NCBI GenBank assembly: GCA_963677945.1
Contig: OY782578.1
Location: forward strand, 2,011,258-2,075,257
Direction of reading: 5' to 3'
Length of the DNA stretch: 64,000 nucleotides
DNA from: an uncultured Bacteroides sp.
GTDB taxonomy: Bacteria > Bacteroidota > Bacteroidia > Bacteroidales > Bacteroidaceae
Shown: positions 3,699-43,425 of the stretch, in pieces
Layout: every line of letters starts with the position of its first letter
How positions within the stretch are numbered: the first letter of the stretch is position 1
Translations under genes and position numbers: made by a program
Notes under the pieces: model-generated
Seen by the model: only the letters and a program-made list of their open reading frames with translations
Told to the model about the DNA's origin: nothing
The model's database searches: none

Positions 3699-6600
3699 AT
3701 GAAAAAACACAATCTTGGACGCAGAGATTCCTATTATGAAATGAATCTGCTGAAAGTACCCAAATTCTTCTTTAAAGGGTTAATTACAGCTTTATTATTT
3801 TTTTGTATAACAACAGCTTTTGCTCAACAGAAGTCAGTTGTTGCAGGTACTGTTGTTGATGAAGGAAGCAATCCTATTATTGGTGCATCAGTAACTGTTT
3901 CGGGGCAAAAAGTCGGTACGGTAACCGATATAAACGGAAAGTTCTCTATTAATGTAGAGCCAAACAAAACTCTTGAAGTAACATTTATTGGTTTTGTATC
4001 ACAAAAAGTTCCGGTAAAAGGTCAGAAAACAATCAATATTGTTTTGCGAGAGGACAATCAGGTGCTTAACGAAGTAATTGTAACTGGTTATGGTGCTGTT
4101 TCAAAGAAAAACCTTACAACTTCTATTGTTAAAGTAAAAGCAGATGATGTTCCTAAGGCTGCCAATAGTAACATGTCTCAAATGTTGATGGGACGTGCTG
4201 CTGGTTTGCAGGCAACAGTTTCCAGTGCTCAACCGGGTGGAGGTATTGACATTACCATTCGTGGTGGAGGTGCACCTATTTATGTAGTTGATGGTGTTGT
4301 AATGCCTGGTTCTTCTTTGGAAGCGAATTCAGGAGGTAGTACAACTGTTATTCCATCGAATGTAAACCGTTCTGGCTTGGCTGGCTTGAATCCTGATGAC
4401 ATTGAGTCTATTGAAGTACTGAAAGATGCATCAGCTTCTATTTATGGTATTGGTGCCGCCAATGGTGTAGTTTTAATTACTACCAAAAAAGGTAAGGAAG
4501 GCAAAATGAGAGTTACCTATGATGGAAGTTTGTCATCTGTATCTAATTATAAATATATCCAATCTTTGGATGCTAAGGACTACATGAGTTATGTCAATGT
4601 ATTCAAAAAGGAACAGTATTTATATAATAATGGTCAGGGTGTGTATGGTAGTACTGCTTATGATGGTGGTAGTTCTGAAGTGTTTACAGCTTCGGATATA
4701 GCTTCTGCACAAACAACAAACTGGCGTAATATGATACTTCGTAACGGAAGCATATCTAATCATAATGTTACAGTTCAGGGAGGATCGAACGCTTTGCAAT
4801 ATTATTTATCTGGAAATTACTTCAACCAGGTAGGCACGGTAGAGAACTCAGCCATGGAGCGTTTTACTTTACGAAGTAATATAGCTTCTCAGCTTACAAG
4901 TTTCCTAAAATTAACGGCAGCTATCAACTTTAATAAAAACCGGAATAATAATGGTACGGTAGGTGGTTCATCTAATGGCCGTGGTGGACAGGCTTCCGGA
5001 TCTTTAGCTGCAGCGCTTTCTTATCCTACAAATATGTCGATAAAAGATGCAGATGGGAAATATACTACATTCCTTACTATTCCTAATCCTGTTGGAATGC
5101 TTGATATTGATGATGTCTCCGTTTCGGAAGGTTATAATATGAATTTCACAATGGATTTTGATATTATAAAGAATATGCTGGCGGCAAAAGTTCTGTATGG
5201 TTATAACCGTGAAACTTCTGATCGTAGTGTTTACATTCCATCAAACGTTTATTATGACCAGGTATTTCAGTCACGCGGTAGTTTGCAGAAAAATGTTCGT
5301 GATAACAGTACTATGGAGGCCACTATTTCCTTTAATAAGAGTTTCCTGGATAAGTTTACATTTGATGCAGTTGTAGGAATGGGACGTTATTTTAATAATT
5401 ATAACGGTCTGGGTGTTTCTTACACTGATATTAATGACGTTATTCAGAATTATAATATCTCTGCAGCTACAGGTAGTGTTGCACAGTCATCTTATAAAGC
5501 AGCAGATGAAAAACGTTCTCAGTTTGGTCGTTTTAGTCTGGATATTCTTGACCGCTATGTTATAGCTGGTAGCCTTCGTCGCGACGGAACCGATAAGTTC
5601 TTTAAAGATAAGAAATATGCATGGTTCCCATCTGTTTCTTTAGCATGGAAGATTTTTAACGAGAAGTTCATGAAGAACATTGAGTGGGTAAACTTGCTTA
5701 AATTAAGAGCTTCTTATGGTGTAACGGGTAATGACAATCTGGGAACCACATTGTATGGATCTTATGGAGCTTTTGGTCATTATGTAGAGTTTGATCAGAA
5801 TAGTACCAAGTATATACCATTTGTTTTGAACAGTCAGGATTACCCAAATGTAACATGGGAGAAAACAGTAATGAAAAATGTTGGTCTTGATTTCTCAATT
5901 TTTAAAGATCGTATTAGCGGCAGTTTTGATTATTTCTGGAATGATGTAACAGATATGCTGGGCACTGCAAATTCTAACGGACTATCTATGTTTGGAACAT
6001 ATCCAATTAATGGAGGACACATCCGTCGTTATGGATGGGATGCTACGATTAATACAAAGAATATAATAACAAAGAATTTCCGTTGGAACAGTATGCTTAC
6101 ATTGTCTCACTACAATGCTATCTGGAAAGAGAGAATGCCTAACTATGATTATGCAGAATATCAGGTACGTAAAGATGAACCGGTCAATGCACTCTATTTT
6201 TATCGCACCGATGGTCTTGTAAATGCAACAATGAGCAATTGCCCCGATTATCAGCCGGATGGATATAAGAAACCGGGTTGTCCTATTATCAAAGATTTGA
6301 ATGGTGATGGTGCAATTACTATTGGCGATGTTGATATGGTAAATGTAGTGCCTGATATTTACCTTGGTTTTGGAAATACATTCTACTACAAGAACTGGGA
6401 TTTGAACGTCTTTGTATACTCACAACTTGGTTTGAAGAAATATAATTATATATATTCATGGTGTAACGGAACTCAGTTAGCTAACCAAACCTTGAACCAA
6501 AGCACTTATATAAAAGATGCATGGACTTCTGATAATCAGAATGGTAACCTTCCTGGTATTGCATATTATTTATCTTCAGTATCTCTGCCTGGTGGCTGTG

Positions 6601-36120: not shown

Positions 36121-39069
36121 ATGGGAGAAGAATTTAAACCTGAGGTAGAAATTGAGAGATTAACAAAATTAATTGAAGAAAAACCTGAAAATGTCGAGGC
36201 ATATAATAGTAGAGGTGATGTTTTTTATACACTAGAAAAATATGATAAAGCAATTCAAGATTATGATAAAGCTATAGAATTAGATGTTAATTGTATTTAT
36301 GCTTATAATAGTAGAGGTAATTCCTTTTATGCACTAGAAGAATATAATAAAGCAATACAAGATTATGATAAAGCTATAGAATTAGATGCAAATTATATTT
36401 ATGCTTATGGTGGCAGAGGTGATGCCTTTTATGCACTAAAAGAATATGATAAAGCAATACAAGCTTATAATAAAGCTATAGAATTAGATGCTAATTATAT
36501 TTATGCTTATAATAGTAGAGGTAATTCCTTTTATGCACAAGAAGAATATAATAAAGCAATACAAGATTATGATAAAGTTATAGAATTAGATGCTAATTAT
36601 ATTTATGCTTATAATAGTAGAGGTAATGCCTTTTATGCACAAAAAGAATATGATAAAGCAATTCAAGATTATGATAAAGCCATTGAGTTAGATGCTAATT
36701 ATATTTTTGCTTATAATAGTAGAGGTAATGCCTTTTATACATTAAAAGAATATGATAAAGCAATTCAAGATTATGATAAAACTATAGAATTAGATCCAAG
36801 TTGGGCTCTAGCTTATGATAGCAGAGGTAATGTCTTTTATGCACAAGAAAAATATGATAAAGCAATTCAAGATTATGATAAAGCAATAGAATTAGATGCT
36901 AATTATATTTATGCTTATAATGCTAGAGGTAATGCCTTTTATGCACAAGAAAAATATGATAAAGCAATTCAAAATTATGGTAAAACTATAGAATTAGATG
37001 CTAATAATATCGATGCTTATATTCTTAGAGGTAATATCTTTTATGCACAAGAAGAATATGATAAAGCAATTCAAGATTATGATAAAGCAATAGAATTAGA
37101 TGCTAATTATATTTTTGCTTATAATAGTAGAGGTAATGCCTTTTATGCACAAAAAGAATATGATAAAGCAATTCAAGATTATGATAAAGCCATTGAGTTA
37201 GATGCTAATTATATTTTTGCTTATAATAGTAGAGGTAATGCCTTTTATACATTAAAAGAATATGATAAAGCAATTCAAGATTATGATAAAACTATTGAAT
37301 TGAATCCTAGTTGGGCTCTAGCTTATGATAGTAGAGGTGGTGTCTTTTATGCATTAAAAAAATATGATAAAGCAATACGAGATTATGATAAAGCCATTGA
37401 ATTAGATGCTAATTATATCTATGCATATAATGCTAGAGGTAATGCTTTCTATGCTCAAGAAGAATATGATAAAGCAATACAAGATTATAATAAAACTATA
37501 GAATTAGATGCTAATTATATTTTTGCTTATAATAACAGAGGTAATGCTTTCTATGCTCAAGAAGAATATAATAAAGCAATACAAGATTATAATAAAACTA
37601 TAGAATTAGATGCTAATTATATTTTTGCTTATAATAATAGAGGTAATGCCTTCTATGCACTAAAAAAATATGATAAAGCAATACAAGATTATAATAAAAC
37701 TATAGAGCTAGATTCTAGTTGGGATCTAGCTTATTATAATAGAGGTAATGTCTTTTATGCACAAGAAGAATATGATAAAGCAATTCAGGATTACAATAAA
37801 GCTATTGAGTTAAATCCTAATTACAAATATGCATATATTAATAAAGGTTATGCATCTTTTAACCTAAAAGATTGGGTAAATGCAGCTCAATCTTTTAATG
37901 CAGCAAAGAGTAGTATACTAGACATTTTGTCATGGTTTGGTGAAAACGAACAAATAGAAGAAGTCATTAGATTCATGATAGAGTATGACGACTTTTTTAA
38001 TAAAACAATTAGCTCTGAGGATATTTCTATAGATCATAAAGAACTATTAAAAAAAATATATATTAACGCGTTGCAAATAATAGCATCGTTACATGTTAAA
38101 AATGAATCTACAGCTGCTCACTATACCAAGAGAGCAACAGCAGCTACGCTGCTATTTTTTGAAGATTCTAAATATAGACTTAATTCTATAATGACAGCTA
38201 ATGATCCACAAGAAGGTGAAACACTTCTTAAATATTTTAAGCTAAAAGAATCAAAAAAAAGTAAAGGCGAAGATTCTAATAATAAAGAGCCAAAACATGA
38301 TTATCAAGCCTTTATTGGTTGTTTTACATTTAATCATGAGAGCTTAAATCAATTCAGACTTTATGGTAAAGCATCAGATAAAGAGGCAACAGGTATTAGT
38401 CTCGTTTTAAATAAAAATTTCTTTAACGAAAAGATGGATATTGGTTTATTGTCAAATTGCTTTTCAAAAGATGACAAAAAAGAATATGCAAACGTTAATA
38501 ATGATTTATCGAAAAAATATGCTTTGTATCGATGTATTTACGTTGATCCAGAAACATACAAAATAATCTCAATAGGGCACAAAGAAGAATATTCATTCTA
38601 TAGAGAATTTAAAGAAAAAAAGAGAATTGATGAAGAAAAAAATAAGGAAGTTATAGACAAATACAATGAGAGTCTTGATGAGATAAAAAATAAAGTGAAT
38701 AAATGTTTTTATAAATTATCCCAATGTATTGAAGATGCTATAAGTAAAGAGCTTGATCAAGATATTATCTGTGAATTGCTCCTTCCATTACGCTATTTAG
38801 TTAAACACGTTGCATTTAAAGAAGAACAAGAATGTAGGATCTTTGATATAAAGGATTTGCAAGAAGATAAACTTAAAGAGAAAGAAAAAAGAGAAATTAA
38901 ATTCACACCTGATTACGCACAAATGTTTATAGAATATCAGCCTATTATGGAATATGTTGAAAAAGTTATTTTTGCGCCAAAAACAGAGGGTGTAGATCTC
39001 TTTAAGAAAGCTGCGGAACAAAAAGGATTAAATGTAAAATGCGACGTTAGTAATCATCCATTTTCTTAG
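36121..39069 (+). CDS. TPR-repeat protein with C-terminal DUF2971-like (ADP-ribosyltransferase-like) domain
   Basis: 16 near-identical 34-aa TPRs plus one degenerate; C-terminal HYT..., NDPQEG, FIGCF, QFRLYG, LVKHVAFKEEQECRI. Confidence 0.85.
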   Translation: MGEEFKPEVEIERLTKLIEEKPENVEAYNSRGDVFYTLEKYDKAIQDYDKAIELDVNCIYAYNSRGNSFYALEEYNKAIQDYDKAIELDANYIYAYGGRGDAFYALKEYDKAIQAYNKAIELDANYIYAYNSRGNSFYAQEEYNKAIQDYDKVIELDANYIYAYNSRGNAFYAQKEYDKAIQDYDKAIELDANYIFAYNSRGNAFYTLKEYDKAIQDYDKTIELDPSWALAYDSRGNVFYAQEKYDKAIQDYDKAIELDANYIYAYNARGNAFYAQEKYDKAIQNYGKTIELDANNIDAYILRGNIFYAQEEYDKAIQDYDKAIELDANYIFAYNSRGNAFYAQKEYDKAIQDYDKAIELDANYIFAYNSRGNAFYTLKEYDKAIQDYDKTIELNPSWALAYDSRGGVFYALKKYDKAIRDYDKAIELDANYIYAYNARGNAFYAQEEYDKAIQDYNKTIELDANYIFAYNNRGNAFYAQEEYNKAIQDYNKTIELDANYIFAYNNRGNAFYALKKYDKAIQDYNKTIELDSSWDLAYYNRGNVFYAQEEYDKAIQDYNKAIELNPNYKYAYINKGYASFNLKDWVNAAQSFNAAKSSILDILSWFGENEQIEEVIRFMIEYDDFFNKTISSEDISIDHKELLKKIYINALQIIASLHVKNESTAAHYTKRATAATLLFFEDSKYRLNSIMTANDPQEGETLLKYFKLKESKKSKGEDSNNKEPKHDYQAFIGCFTFNHESLNQFRLYGKASDKEATGISLVLNKNFFNEKMDIGLLSNCFSKDDKKEYANVNNDLSKKYALYRCIYVDPETYKIISIGHKEEYSFYREFKEKKRIDEEKNKEVIDKYNESLDEIKNKVNKCFYKLSQCIEDAISKELDQDIICELLLPLRYLVKHVAFKEEQECRIFDIKDLQEDKLKEKEKREIKFTPDYAQMFIEYQPIMEYVEKVIFAPKTEGVDLFKKAAEQKGLNVKCDVSNHPFS
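36193..37824 (+). repeat. 16 x 102-bp in-frame tandem repeat (TPR coding)
   Basis: Consensus IYAYNSRGNAFYAQEEYDKAIQDYDKAIELDANY; exact 180-bp duplication 36606-36785 = 37116-37295. Confidence 0.97.
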
Positions 39070-39593: not shown

Positions 39594-39690
39594 TTATGTT
39601 ATTGAAATTTACTCGACACTGGTGAGAGAATTACAATGCTTTAATTTGATCAATAGAATTTTCGAATAACTGAGTTAAGATGAAAAGAAG

Positions 39691-40086
39691 TCACCTCTCA
39701 CTCTTCTCAAACCCAGCAGCACTAATCCGCTTCTTCATCTTGGAAGAAGCCCGGAAATTAACACTCTTCACCTCAATACTCTCGGCGCGATGAGTTTTTT
39801 CGGGATTAAAGTCTTCACGGAATTGTGCAGAGAGTTGGAAAGCACCATAGTCATTTAAGGCAACTGTGTAACCGTTTTTTAAAGCTTTCTCTATTGCACT
39901 AAATGTTTTTGTTATTGCTAGCTCCATTTCTGTACGTAGTAATGGGTCGTTTCCTGCAATGTATTCGGCTAATGCTTTTGTGTTTAGCTTTTCTCTGCTT
40001 TTTATTATTGGGTGAACACCGCCTTTTTTCTTTGTGTCTTTACTTAAATTATCGTTTATCTCTTTGAATTTATATGGTATGCCCAT
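39691..40086 (-). CDS. Bacteroidetes HU-like (HU-HIG type) DNA-binding protein
   Basis: KLNTKALAEYIA, KALKNGYTVALNDYGAFQLS, VKSVNFRASSKMK match the extended HU/IHF-like family common in Bacteroides. Confidence 0.8.
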   Translation of the reverse strand: MGIPYKFKEINDNLSKDTKKKGGVHPIIKSREKLNTKALAEYIAGNDPLLRTEMELAITKTFSAIEKALKNGYTVALNDYGAFQLSAQFREDFNPEKTHRAESIEVKSVNFRASSKMKKRISAAGFEKSER

Positions 40087-40120
40087 GGTAATTAATGTTT
40101 TATTGGTTTATGGTTTCTAC

Positions 40121-40183
40121 AAACATGTACAAGATTGAATTCGAACATGTACATGTTCGAATGTCGATCGTGTACATGATCGA
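40121..40183. repeat. Array of TGTACA-centred palindromes upstream of the HU-like gene
   Basis: Perfect 24-bp palindrome attcgaacatgtacatgttcgaat 40139-40162; near-perfect tcgatcgtgtacatgatcga 40164-40183; tgtac cores at 40126, 40148, 40171. Confidence 0.85.
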
Positions 40184-40283
40184 TATGATGTCTCGTTTTG
40201 TTTTTGCTAATTCGTTTAGTCATATTTGCTAATATGCCTATATGTTTGAATTATAGTATATTAGCTAATATGAATATATCTCT

Positions 40284-40422
40284 GGGTGTCAGAGGTGTCA
40301 GAGAAAAAGTCCTTTTTCTCTTTCTGAAAATAAAATTTTGAAAATTCCGCAATTTGCAGATTTTTCGTTTTTTTATTTTTGAAACGCTGAAAAACCTTTT
40401 TTTACTGACACCTCTGACACCC
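40284..40422. repeat. 139-bp fold-back element with perfect 18-bp terminal inverted repeats, each holding 2 x GGTGTCAG
   Basis: gggtgtcagaggtgtcag 40284-40301 and ctgacacctctgacaccc 40405-40422; AT-rich interior with degenerate symmetry; ends 4 bp from the VirE stop codon. Confidence 0.92.
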
Positions 40423-40426
40423 CTTG

Positions 40427-42508
40427 CTAATCTAACTCCTTGATAACTACGTTATAGACTGTTTTTCCTTTTACTCTTTTCCACTGATAATTAAGTGATT
40501 TCAAGTTCCTTCCCAGCTTAACGATCATCTTCTTACTAATAGCAATCCCCGTTTTACTTTTAATATATTCCGCTAGTTTTGCTGCAGAAAGGAAAATACC
40601 TTCCTCTTCACCTTCCGGTTTACGGTAATATTCATAGAAAAGTTCCATATCTGCATCAGTTTCCATGTAGTGTTGGTTGTGCTGCTCTACAATGCTATTT
40701 TCTTCTGAATTGAAGTAGTAACGGAATCCATTGAGAATCATGTTCCATGCCTGGGCATAGAGTTGCTTGTAATCTATGGTGAAATCGAAATTTATAGGAC
40801 CTGTTACTTCGTGGCATAGGTTACGACGGCTACCGGTGTAATCTCTCAGAATATCCATGTGATTGGTTGTTCCGAAGAAGGAAGCATGGCGCGTGAAATT
40901 TCGTGGGGGACGGTCCGGCGAGATGCGTATATTTATGTTGAACGTGGTGAACAACTCTTTTACCGTTTCCTGATCGTATCGCTGAATGGTATCCAGCTCG
41001 TCGATATTCAGGATGGCACTGGTGCTTAGCTTCATGCGGGTTGCATTGGCATTATTGGAAAATACGTTGGCATCGAAATGACTTTTGCGCCACTCGGGAG
41101 GTAACAGACGTTCCGGCCAGGTGGATTTTCCCATACCGTGTTTACCGCCAATCAATACCAGAATCTGATGATTAATTACTCGGTCGTTTATCAATGAAGC
41201 AACCAATGCCACGAACCATTTACGGAAGCACCATTCAAAATATTCGGGATCTTTGGTGGGTACGGTGGCTGCCACATCGGCAATATAGTCGTGCCCATCC
41301 CATTCGGTGAAGGGGACAAAGATAAAATCCTTGAAAGGGTGGTAGGAGGGGGTAAACTCGGAATCTACCATTGCCTTTACATCATTCAGGGTGCAGTTTA
41401 TTCCTTCTTTGTGTGCCCGGATATAAATGGTGTTGAGGTGATGATCGCGAAGCTCGGTCCACTCATGATTGGTATGATCGGCATAACGGAATTCAATGCC
41501 TTGTAGTATTACATTGCGGCGCAACATGAAGTTGCGTTTGATAAACTCTTCGAGCTGGTGTGTCTCTTTCTCCACTTTTGTCAGTCCGCTGTCAGTACCA
41601 AACGCATTTTCGTACTCTTTATATTTAATTCGGATGGTGCGGCGGAGGTCGTCGGCTGTAAAATTGTTTGTAATACAGCGTGGAAGTGCCAGTTTGGCTG
41701 TTTCGGCTTCAGGAAGTCCTGCCAGACAGCAAAAGTATGCCAAACCGTACACAAATTGTGACCGGTTTTCTTCCAGGAAAGATTCCTTGTTGAGTGTGTT
41801 AGAGTAAGCGCGGTCGAATGCTCTTTTTATTTCAAGATCCCGTGCTTCGCCAATTGGCAGATGTGCAAATGAAATGGGGTCTCCCTCCATGTTTCGGAGT
41901 AACTTTTCCGGTTTTTTCTCGTAATCCTTTTTGGTGGCTACCAGGAACACTTCTGCTTCAGAATTAAAGAATAATTGCGGATCGTAGGTGGCGGTGGTTA
42001 GTTGTGCCAGTGAGTGCGTACTTTTCTTAAAATCAGCGTATAAGCATGATTCGTAATAGATGCTGACAGTTGCAAATGCCTGCTCGTGAAACTGTGCAAT
42101 CTCTTCATTTGTCTGCGGTTGTGAATTATCCGGACGAGATACAGGAACAAGGATGATAATTTCTGTTCCGTCTGTATTTATGAAAGAGGCGAGGGTGTTG
42201 GGTTCTTTGGCTGCATTATCCCGAAGGGCTTCGGCTTGTTTCGGTTCCAGTTTTGTGCTGCAAAGCTGAACAATTCCGTTGTACTGCTCCATATTGGTTT
42301 TGGTACGTCCGCCATTGAAAGTGGCGCCAAATGTGAAAGAGGGGAGTTGCTCCCATGCTTTGGCTGTGTCTGTGCTGTTGTTTCGGATATCGTCAACGAG
42401 GCTTGCGTATTTTAAACTGCTGAAAGAGTTGATTACTTCTGTTATCGGACTGTTTTCAAGAAATGTAGGGCGGCCTTTATTTCCACCTTTGTAGTGTGAT
42501 ACATTCAT
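40427..42508 (-). CDS. BT4734-like N-terminal / VirE (VapE) P-loop ATPase / DUF3874-like protein (primase-helicase architecture)
   Basis: LPSFTFGATFNGGR...YNGIVQL (VirE_N), NRSQFVYGLA (PriCT-like), Walker A GKHGMGKST, Walker B ILNIDE, ASFFGTTN, TGSRR. Confidence 0.85.
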   Translation of the reverse strand: MNVSHYKGGNKGRPTFLENSPITEVINSFSSLKYASLVDDIRNNSTDTAKAWEQLPSFTFGATFNGGRTKTNMEQYNGIVQLCSTKLEPKQAEALRDNAAKEPNTLASFINTDGTEIIILVPVSRPDNSQPQTNEEIAQFHEQAFATVSIYYESCLYADFKKSTHSLAQLTTATYDPQLFFNSEAEVFLVATKKDYEKKPEKLLRNMEGDPISFAHLPIGEARDLEIKRAFDRAYSNTLNKESFLEENRSQFVYGLAYFCCLAGLPEAETAKLALPRCITNNFTADDLRRTIRIKYKEYENAFGTDSGLTKVEKETHQLEEFIKRNFMLRRNVILQGIEFRYADHTNHEWTELRDHHLNTIYIRAHKEGINCTLNDVKAMVDSEFTPSYHPFKDFIFVPFTEWDGHDYIADVAATVPTKDPEYFEWCFRKWFVALVASLINDRVINHQILVLIGGKHGMGKSTWPERLLPPEWRKSHFDANVFSNNANATRMKLSTSAILNIDELDTIQRYDQETVKELFTTFNINIRISPDRPPRNFTRHASFFGTTNHMDILRDYTGSRRNLCHEVTGPINFDFTIDYKQLYAQAWNMILNGFRYYFNSEENSIVEQHNQHYMETDADMELFYEYYRKPEGEEEGIFLSAAKLAEYIKSKTGIAISKKMIVKLGRNLKSLNYQWKRVKGKTVYNVVIKELD

Positions 42509-43160: not shown

Positions 43161-43358
43161 TGTAAGCTGTATTAAGTTCTTTTGGTTTTAAATTTCCTAT
43201 GGAAATATATTCCTTAGGTGTTCGGCGCAAAGATATATATATTTTCTTATAAAACAAATTTCCTTTGGAAAATAATAGTGAAAAGATTTAAATTGAATAA
43301 AAAATAGTCTGGTAATATATATAATTGATGTGTGGAATATTGTTTGAGAGGTATGGGC

Positions 43359-43425
43359 AAAAAAAATGGTTGTCATCACGACAACCAATCTTTGTTAACC
43401 TTAAATCTAATACTATGAAAAACAC
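43359..43425 (-). ncRNA. Candidate trans-acting sRNA, FopS-like (anti-start-codon seed)
   Basis: TTTG (43457-43460)-N19-TAcaTTTG (43430-43437) promoter; body GUGUUUUUCAUAGUAUUAGAUUUAAGGUUAAC; terminator tggttgtc/gacaacca plus U8. Confidence 0.7.

Follow-up and report, generated by a model that had tools for sequence, protein, structure and literature searches.

A fold-back element with inverted iterons as a candidate loading site for the adjacent BT4734-family primase-helicase of a Bacteroides chromosome

We analysed a 64-kb stretch of DNA (64,000 nucleotides, hereafter the window) from an uncultured Bacteroides sp. (contig OY782578.1). It contains a near-palindromic fold-back element of 139 bp at positions 40284-40422, just downstream of the gene for a BT4734-family primase-helicase that we call VirE. 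We propose that this primase-helicase recognises the fold-back and loads onto it as its cognate site, which is built and probably used like the replication origins of Staphylococcus aureus pathogenicity islands (SaPIs). Judged from sequence comparison, we consider this proposal about evenly balanced between right and wrong. The features that carry it are the anatomy of the element, its constant position at the VirE stop codon, its strict length, and the joint switching of its 9-bp repeats (iterons) with the tip of a predicted C-terminal winged helix in VirE.

Anatomy of the fold-back element

The element is bounded by two 18-bp arms. The HU-proximal arm (40284-40301; GGGTGTCAGAGGTGTCAG), named for the neighbouring HU-HIG gene, consists of a G followed by two tandem 9-bp iterons (GGTGTCAGA, GGTGTCAG), with GGTGTCAG present twice per arm at a period of 9 bp. 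An identical arm is found at four other loci (L063, L065, L151 and L153; L numbers denote recovered loci). The VirE-proximal arm (40405-40422) is the exact reverse complement of 40284-40301, with both iterons inverted, and is separated from the TAG stop of VirE by 4 bp (CTTG). Between the arms lies a spacer of 103 bp (40302-40404) that is 75.7% A+T, compared with 63.6% for the whole window. It comprises two inverted copies of a conserved arm module of about 40 nt, in which an A-tract, a few bases and a T-tract are followed by CGTTCTGA..AATTTTGAAAA. The two 69-nt halves of the element are 72% complementary. A 10-bp local hairpin can form within the element (40300-40309/40312-40321), and a 17-bp palindrome, TTCCGCAATTTGCAGAt (40345-40361), is centred on the element midpoint at 40353. 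The family consensus of this palindrome, TTCYGCAAWTTGCRGAA, is the best-conserved part of the element besides the GGTG of the iterons. An earlier description made from the letters of the window (the sequence-only reading) had reported perfect 18-bp terminal inverted repeats with a word doubled at a 9-bp period, a roughly 100-bp AT-rich core with degenerate inverted halves, and an end 4 bp from the VirE stop; all of these points are borne out.

The VirE-proximal half also carries an exact Bacteroides -7-type box, TATTTTTG (40374-40381), the TAttTTTG word that the sequence-only reading had noticed, and this box is kept in all copies that share the window's iteron type (type C). A chance origin of the fold-back is excluded: the 17-mer of the arm has only two sites in the window, one in each arm, where 0.06 are expected; block-shuffled windows contain no perfect 14-nt inverted repeats within 150 nt; and the folding z-score of the element is -8.7 as DNA and -9.7 as RNA.

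SaPI origins follow a small set of rules, summarised in PMC9371898 from the work of Ubeda et al. 2007 and 2012 on origins of SaPIs and other phage-inducible chromosomal islands (PICIs). The origin lies immediately downstream of rep, its centre is AT-rich, and at least two iterons stand on each side in opposite orientation; the iterons are recognised by a C-terminal winged helix, and a separate helicase loader is unneeded. The SaPI/PICI origin layout to which the fold-back had earlier been likened agrees with these published rules, and the window element conforms to each of the anatomical ones.

VirE is related to a SaPI replication initiator

The VirE gene (40427-42508, reverse strand) encodes 693 aa with an archaeo-eukaryotic primase (AEP) domain, a VapE-like ATPase of the superfamily 3 (SF3) type and a DUF3874 domain (Pfam BT4734-like_N 3.5e-24, VapE-like 3.3e-31, DUF3874 1.2e-10), and the protein also matches PHROG DNA helicase and primase families. 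BT4734-like primase-helicases have been defined as a family (PMC11724360), and VirE has the features that identify its members, namely an N-terminal AEP domain, a VirE/VapE ATPase and DUF3874. The only solved structure related to VirE by sequence is PDB 7PDS, which is SaPI1 Rep1 bound to DNA and comes from the paper that gives the origin rules (PMC9371898); the ATPase domain matches it with E=9e-12 as a single sequence and 7e-19 as a profile.

In an AlphaFold model, the last 120 residues of VirE form a strand-helix-helix-hairpin arrangement, with a pLDDT (predicted local distance difference test) of 88-94 over the C-terminal 70 residues. The best Foldseek matches in the PDB are all winged helices (RFX5, SSV1 F-93, RAP74, BlaI/MecI, Cdt1 and the MCM winged helix; E of at least 0.16). 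From the model and a C-terminal alignment, the predicted recognition helix covers residues 659-671 (SKKMIVKLGRNLK) and the predicted beta-hairpin wing residues 676-689 (QWKRVKGKTVYNVV), encoded together at 40442-40534 on the reverse strand. The residues that switch with iteron type (see below) map to the second helix and the hairpin of this model. A homologue search with the same 120 residues returned eight fragments, which proved useful as truncated VirE remnants.

A family of fold-backs with at least six iteron variants

Using an nhmmer model built from recovered elements, we collected 62 elements in 41 loci, counts that are indicative, since the search patterns demanded the core together with GGTGT words, and many of the loci represent one site in different samples. 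All members belong to bacteria related to Bacteroides luti and B. sedimenti. Scanning a genome collection with the 17-mer gave mostly chance matches in high-GC genomes (10 of 120 loci were from Bacteroidales), together with paired matches, again spaced by 120 bp, in Bacteroides luti and, at three chromosomal places, in a Bacteroidaceae metagenome-assembled genome (MAG). A structured pattern search of metagenome contigs then yielded 32 further loci. In the viral collection IMG/VR, a core 20-mer found seven matches, all by chance and none with arms, and a protein-based scan found no relatives.

Full-length elements are nearly all 135-137 bp; the exceptions are one collapsed copy (L170) and matches that a contig end or the model has truncated. 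They share a common plan of two tandem 9-mers, the arm module of about 40 nt and the central 17-bp palindrome (TTCYGCAAWTTGCRGAA), followed by the mirror image. The iterons themselves occur in at least six variants (GGTGTCAGA, GGTGTACAT, GGTGTAGAT, GGTGGAGAG, GGTGGCAGA and GGTGGCAGG/AGTGGCAGG), every one of which retains the tandem 9-mer duplication. Both arms change together, with double changes in 7-25 sequences per pair and almost no broken pairs. Within elements, this covariation between arms is limited to the iterons, and an RNAalifold consensus recovers the iteron stem and the central palindrome and nothing else. Between loci, the inner arms of the copies are about 70% alike, and inner-arm complementarity is 0.686 within an element and 0.705 between unrelated elements. 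Because inner arms are no more complementary within than between elements, the alignments describe the element as an inverted dimer of a conserved half-unit, with no hairpin kept by compensatory change.

These comparisons bear directly on a structured RNA, the sequence-only reading's suggestion of a long 3'-untranslated-region hairpin, or else a terminator or small RNA (sRNA). Either strand can fold into a hairpin of about 55 bp (-56 to -61 kcal/mol, z=-9.7), metatranscriptome contigs cover the element, and a short T-run follows some orphan copies, that is, copies far from any VirE gene. However, the metatranscriptome depth is low and fits read-through transcription or contaminating DNA, and Rfam 15 contains no matching family (the only hit on the element is a chance-level miRNA model, which scores 21.6 bits where 95 is the gathering score). 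The strands are equivalent (-58.0 and -57.7 kcal/mol; 2.46 and 2.54 G-U pairs), and because both fold equally well there is no strand-specific RNA signature. The complementarity values given above likewise indicate that inner-stem pairing is not under selection. A hairpin would also need no tandem 9-bp repeat in each arm, and a distant clade keeps a lone, unpaired arm. We therefore regard an RNA element as very unlikely.

A promoter segment flipped between the 18-bp inverted repeats, which had also been raised as an alternative, is the least probable of the explanations considered and can be given hardly any weight. Perfect 18-bp inverted repeats around a segment of about 100 bp that holds TATTTTTG do recall an inverton. 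Yet the orientation is constant in all 22 orthologous copies from independent assemblies (5/5 of type C, 7/7 of type B and 10/10 linked to thrC), as seen in assembled contigs; the segment is near-palindromic, so a flip would alter little; and no recombinase gene is adjacent. One contig contains a lone joint of opposite strands, to which we gave no weight, as it is expected from a palindrome in a de Bruijn graph.

Iterons switch together with the tip of the predicted winged helix

The sequence-only reading had proposed looking for similar inverted iterons after other VirE genes and for their co-variation with the C-terminal domain; we find both among close homologues of VirE. All sixteen distinct VirE-linked elements start between an overlap with the end of the open reading frame (ORF) and 13 bp past the stop. 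Four VirE ORFs (P0001, P0002, P0005 and P0022) end inside the iterons, giving protein tails such as GGEGGEK and GVHGVHK.

Up to KLGRNLKSLNY the close VirE proteins share more than 94% identity, after which the last 16-19 residues follow the iteron type. A residue of the preceding helix, in the motif MI[V/W]KLG, switches likewise. At every VirE-linked element the iteron variant corresponds to the last ~35 residues of the protein, a predicted winged helix. The wing QWKRVKGKTVYNVV accompanies the iteron GGTGTCAGA at 5/5 loci, and [SK]FRKSRGITQYEV accompanies GGTGTACAT at seven loci, among them B. sedimenti, whose protein is 72% identical. At L160 and L161, KFRTYKGTTQYKV is paired with GGTGGAGAG; at L180, where both arms have changed, KFRKYKGTTQYMV is paired with GGTGTAGAG/GGTGGAGAG. 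The remaining pairings are QWKRINGYTVYHIY with GGTGGCAGG/AGTGGCAGG (L169) and QWKRVMGRTVYCVV with GTGGCAGT/GTGGCAGA (L172). At least five wing/iteron pairings thus exist, and they are dissociated from overall similarity: proteins 95% identical elsewhere differ in both tip and iteron, whereas the 72%-identical protein retains both.

DNA alignment shows that the pairings move as a cassette of about 270 bp (40256-40523 in the window), made up of the last ~33 VirE codons, the fold-back and about 30 bp beyond it, which is exchanged as a block between loci otherwise ~95% identical. Its edges are sharp, with synonymous divergence beginning at the MI[V/W]KLG codon and similarity returning at TATAATTCAAACATATAG, and synonymous sites inside it diverge even where the peptide is kept. 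Depending on the strain, the element at one and the same chromosomal site beside crcB is of type C (window, L065, L151), type D (L160), type D' (L180) or type B (L143). Alleles of the VirE body and of the downstream HU-HIG gene assort freely relative to iteron type. We also considered HU-HIG as the specificity determinant and rejected it: two HU alleles, 79% and 94% identical to that of the window, each span several iteron types.

Iterons also follow some more distant genes. Homologues of BT4734 that are about 30% identical are encoded in plasmid records of Bacteroides and on small virome contigs from the human gut. Directly behind the stop, two of six such virome contigs have a cluster of 9-mers, three of them direct and one or two inverted, that surrounds an AT-rich gap. 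In L174 (MT838091.1) the cluster occupies 4939-5050, begins 7 nt past the stop and is built on ATCTGCAAC; in L178 (MT836775.1) it occupies ~2812-2905, begins 1 nt past the stop and is built on ATCGACACC, the reverse complement of GGTGTCGAT, which is again a GGTGT-type word. These two contigs may be small VirE-driven replicons. Both encode full-length BT4734-family proteins. In a clade 53-55% identical to VirE, a single arm (two iterons plus the A/T-tract module) lies 130-150 bp past the stop.

A proposed loading mechanism

A working model of the fold-back as a VirE loading site can be drawn from these data, in which binding, melting, priming and the identity of the replicated DNA are the parts we infer. 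Each arm would present two tandem 9-bp iterons to VirE, whose C-terminal winged helix (DUF3874) would contact them through its recognition helix and wing. The opposed arms would place two VirE assemblies head to head across the A/T-rich spacer of about 100 bp. The spacer, with its A- and T-tracts and central 17-bp palindrome, would then be melted, and the SF3-type helicase and the fused AEP primase would start DNA synthesis. Any firing would take place in situ with no excised satellite, the module residing stably in the chromosome next to a cargo hot spot.

Chromosomal context of the VirE module

The next gene downstream of VirE encodes a 131-aa HU-HIG family DNA-binding protein (39691-40086, reverse strand; Pfam), and it is a constant downstream partner of VirE and the fold-back. 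In the paper defining HU-HIG, HU-HIG genes are described as having no conserved linkages. Upstream of the HU-HIG gene, at 40119-40183, stand three operator-like palindromes of the AACATGTACA type, 22-23 bp apart (AACATGTACAAGATTGA, TCGAACATGTACATGTTCGA and TCGATCGTGTACATGATCGA), one of which includes GTGTACATG, resembling the type B iteron. They are kept at every VirE-HU locus regardless of iteron type, with four copies in B. sedimenti.

This arrangement invites a different explanation, in which VirE binds the element in a non-replicative role, as an operator, roadblock or titration locus. The winged helix on the iterons would regulate read-through from VirE into HU-HIG, or outward transcription from the arm modules, and orphan arrays would add more sites for regulation or titration, like iteron clusters outside plasmid origins. 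The same co-variation of wing and iteron would be expected, the element does sit between VirE and the HU promoter/operator region, every type C copy keeps TATTTTTG in its VirE-proximal half, orphan copies lie in ordinary intergenic regions, and metatranscriptome contigs cross the element. Nevertheless, head-to-head iteron pairs around an AT-rich spacer of fixed length are a classic helicase-loading layout that a roadblock would not need, the protein is a primase-helicase without a known regulatory role, and the promoter-like box is exact in one half and in one type only. We judge a regulatory site improbable, though well short of negligible.

The remainder of the window is ordinary Bacteroides chromosome, with polysaccharide-utilisation loci, panC/panD, enolase and crcB. 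Directly past the HU-HIG stop lies a cargo hot spot (39658-39693) that is empty in the window. At other loci (L065, L143, L151, L160, L162 and L180) it holds KilA-N genes, HigB with a helix-turn-helix/M78 peptidase, or two SNF2/ResIII helicases, and in B. sedimenti ThsB_TIR and a caspase follow HU. No att-like repeats were found at this site. Beyond the HU gene, in a variable stretch, a 982-aa protein (36121-39069, forward strand) contains at least 16 near-identical 34-residue tetratricopeptide repeat (TPR) units, and its C-terminal region of about 400 residues has no domain match. On the other side of VirE, between the DUF190/crcB genes and a small ORF upstream of VirE, a match to the Bacteroidetes FopS sRNA family (Rfam RF04319) lies at 43356-43425 on the reverse strand (82.7 bits; gathering score 56).

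Orphan copies and other evidence against a simple origin

Several observations weigh against reading the fold-back as the private origin of its neighbouring gene. About two thirds of the recovered loci are orphans far from any VirE, including tandem arrays of mixed type, and a model of one replicon with one origin does not predict such arrays. The sequence-only reading had held that a multi-copy element unlinked to VirE would speak against it; that description fits these loci, the VirE-linked ones being otherwise. In addition, a horse-gut Bacteroidaceae MAG carries the exact type C 18-mer as single outward-facing arms around a VapE-HU pair (L052, 491-508 and 2742-2759) and again in L078 (5619-5635), thus in at least two places of the genome. 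The pair so enclosed is GC-rich and consists of genes for a VapE without primase domain, which is 28% identical and has an unrelated wing, and for an HU-HIG protein, beside type I restriction hsdM genes. Together, the orphan arrays and the horse-gut arms lower our confidence in a simple origin and keep alive a reading of the element as a dispersed repeat.

Homologues also set bounds. The other four of the six virome homologues have no iterons, with ordinary terminators or convergent genes after the stop, the plasmid homologue L175 has none after its gene, and homologues at 60% and 29% identity lack comparable iterons. Near the module we recognised no genes for an integrase, an excisionase or packaging, as judged from the window's ORF list and Pfam on part of the ORFs, and the module occupies a syntenic chromosomal site on the crcB side in the window, L065, L160, L180, L151 and L143. 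The earlier idea of a satellite-type origin is divided by the evidence: the origin layout is supported, in line with the SaPI rules and the homology to Rep1, whereas the satellite part finds no support, with no integrase recognised nearby, a syntenic site and no relatives found in IMG/VR. Foldseek support for the predicted winged helix lies below significance. Finally, the wing codons are 4-100 bp from the iterons, and because the two adjoin within one recombination block, linkage explains part of their co-variation. Linkage fails to explain the dissociation from overall protein similarity or the constant two-by-two iteron geometry.

The orphans occupy intergenic gaps of 600-750 bp, for example after thrC or between SusC/D-type genes. 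Their arrays join two or three fold-backs that differ in iteron type, ~195-205 bp apart, each preceded by a CTGATWATCAG palindrome (among others L018, 1221-1549; L092, 2417-2745; L131, 3378-3717; L148, 2161-2684). The first member is always of type A/B and the second of type C/E/F, and because each position has its own inner-arm subtype, the alignments make the pair look like a dispersed unit. Arrays are often found where gene order diverges between strains, as downstream of thrC beside restriction genes. Some orphans derive from decayed VirE modules: in L138 the element comes after a 3' pseudogene remnant of VirE, and the collapsed element of L170 (1558-1612; two arms with a 17-nt spacer) follows a truncated VirE of 85 aa that reads into the iterons. 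In the conserved flank of orphan copies we looked by eye for a Bacteroides-type promoter (TTTG/TAnnTTTG), and dropped this candidate after finding only near-misses.

In isolate-like public sequencing runs, word depth over the HU operator region (40089-40209) and the element core (40331-40451) is 4-6x that of the flanks, and the VirE-HU region breaks into many short contigs at 90-99% identity. The raised depth and the fragmented, near-identical contigs indicate several paralogous modules per genome.

The dispersed copies raise the possibility that the fold-back is a non-autonomous repeat, either a miniature inverted-repeat transposable element (MITE) or akin to repetitive extragenic palindromes (REPs) and the bacterial interspersed mosaic elements (BIMEs) that they form, with the copy beside VirE as one insertion or the 'home' copy. 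Its arms would be terminal repeats read by a trans-acting protein, possibly VirE itself in the manner of a REP-associated tyrosine transposase (RAYT), and the element would be selfish or structural DNA. Most of the 62 elements in 41 loci do lie away from VirE, the element core has the raised depth just described, and several copies sit at synteny breakpoints. The mosaic arrays with their CTGATWATCAG palindrome recall BIMEs, and the VapE-HU pair of L052 stands between inverted arms as RAYT genes stand between REPs. However, no transposase or HUH nuclease is seen beside any copy, and no target-site duplication or consistent direct repeat was recognised at the ends. Inner arms only ~70% alike mean that the copies are not recent products of transposition, and the copy number per genome is apparently low, at ~5-10. 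A passive repeat predicts neither a kept tandem 9-bp repeat nor its switching with the tip of a protein. Such a repeat is, in our estimate, an unlikely explanation that nonetheless deserves to be carried forward.

A broader version of the loading-site proposal would accommodate the orphans. The fold-backs could be genome-wide, specificity-coded loading sites for paralogous chromosomal primase-helicases, triggering in-situ amplification or mobilisation of cargo. Next to its gene as well as in the orphan arrays, each VirE paralogue would read an iteron 'address' of its own, and the swappable wing-and-iteron cassette of ~270 bp would insulate paralogues from one another. Arrays would mark hot spots of variable cargo, often with defence genes (the thrC hot spot, the post-HU site), and phage attack or stress would set off 'onion-skin' synthesis by VirE that amplifies or mobilises the cargo nearby. 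We regard this extension as speculative and give it a slim chance.

Discussion

In gut and environmental Bacteroidota, the BT4734/VirE-type primase-helicases belong to the gene families that have expanded most and are understood least. Their genes are repeatedly found next to capsule loci, next to defence genes, and next to CRISPR or reverse-transcriptase systems. The locus described here offers a concrete candidate protein-DNA pair for this family, and its six or more iteron types with matching tips are natural specificity controls. If the fold-back is the loading site of VirE, the SaPI-type design of a self-loading helicase with an adjacent iteron origin would reach another phylum and a chromosomal, non-excising setting; DUF3874 would gain a function; and Bacteroides genetics would gain orthogonal small replicon parts. 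The orphan arrays would then pose the question of why a chromosome scatters loading sites for an accessory initiator, and they hint at more than a private origin.

In the literature searched, no DNA target is described for the BT4734/VirE family, nor is a module of VirE, fold-back and HU. Several known systems nevertheless share parts of its design. The short palindromic units of several types, the mosaic intergenic arrays and the accessory motifs resemble the REP/BIME-RAYT systems of enterobacteria and pseudomonads, in which one protein gene is flanked by units (here L052) and the protein is thought to recognise them. RAYT is an HUH Y1 transposase of the IS200/IS605-like kind, unlike VirE, which combines an AEP primase, an SF3 helicase and a winged helix and has no HUH domain. 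Copies here number in the tens, compared with hundreds for REP/BIME units, and the units here hold tandem 9-bp repeats. The Correia elements of Neisseria, which are MITEs, are likewise ~100-150 bp long and intergenic, have terminal inverted repeats and a possible internal protein-binding site, and lie at points of rearrangement. The fold-backs differ from them in having no recognised target-site duplication or cognate transposase, in the age of their copies (~70% alike), and in at least six terminal-repeat variants that track the tip of a neighbouring protein.

In layout the fold-back resembles the SaPI/PICI origins. In both, the site lies directly 3' of a helicase or primase-helicase gene, with at least two opposed iterons per side and an AT-rich centre. 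The initiator, for which VirE is the candidate here, has an SF3-like ATPase (Rep1 homology, E=7e-19) and a C-terminal winged helix, which in VirE is predicted and would set the specificity; and related elements carry different specificities. The fold-back differs in its 9-mers, exactly two per arm, in its compact near-palindrome of 135-137 bp and in its conserved central 17-bp palindrome. It also differs in its Bacteroidota host, BT4734-family protein, syntenic locus, and chromosomal orphan copies and arrays, and the surroundings of the module contain no recognised genes for integration, excision or packaging. Because this island context is missing, the element is outside the SaPI/PICI family.

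A further parallel is provided by the core origins of SV40 and the papillomaviruses, at which inverted short words set two hexamers of an SF3 helicase (large T antigen and E1, respectively) head to head, with A/T-rich DNA that melts easily beside them. The DNA-binding domain of these viral helicases has another fold and another position than that of VirE. There the words are central and the melted DNA flanks them, whereas the window element has the reverse order, with its words outside and the AT-rich DNA inside.

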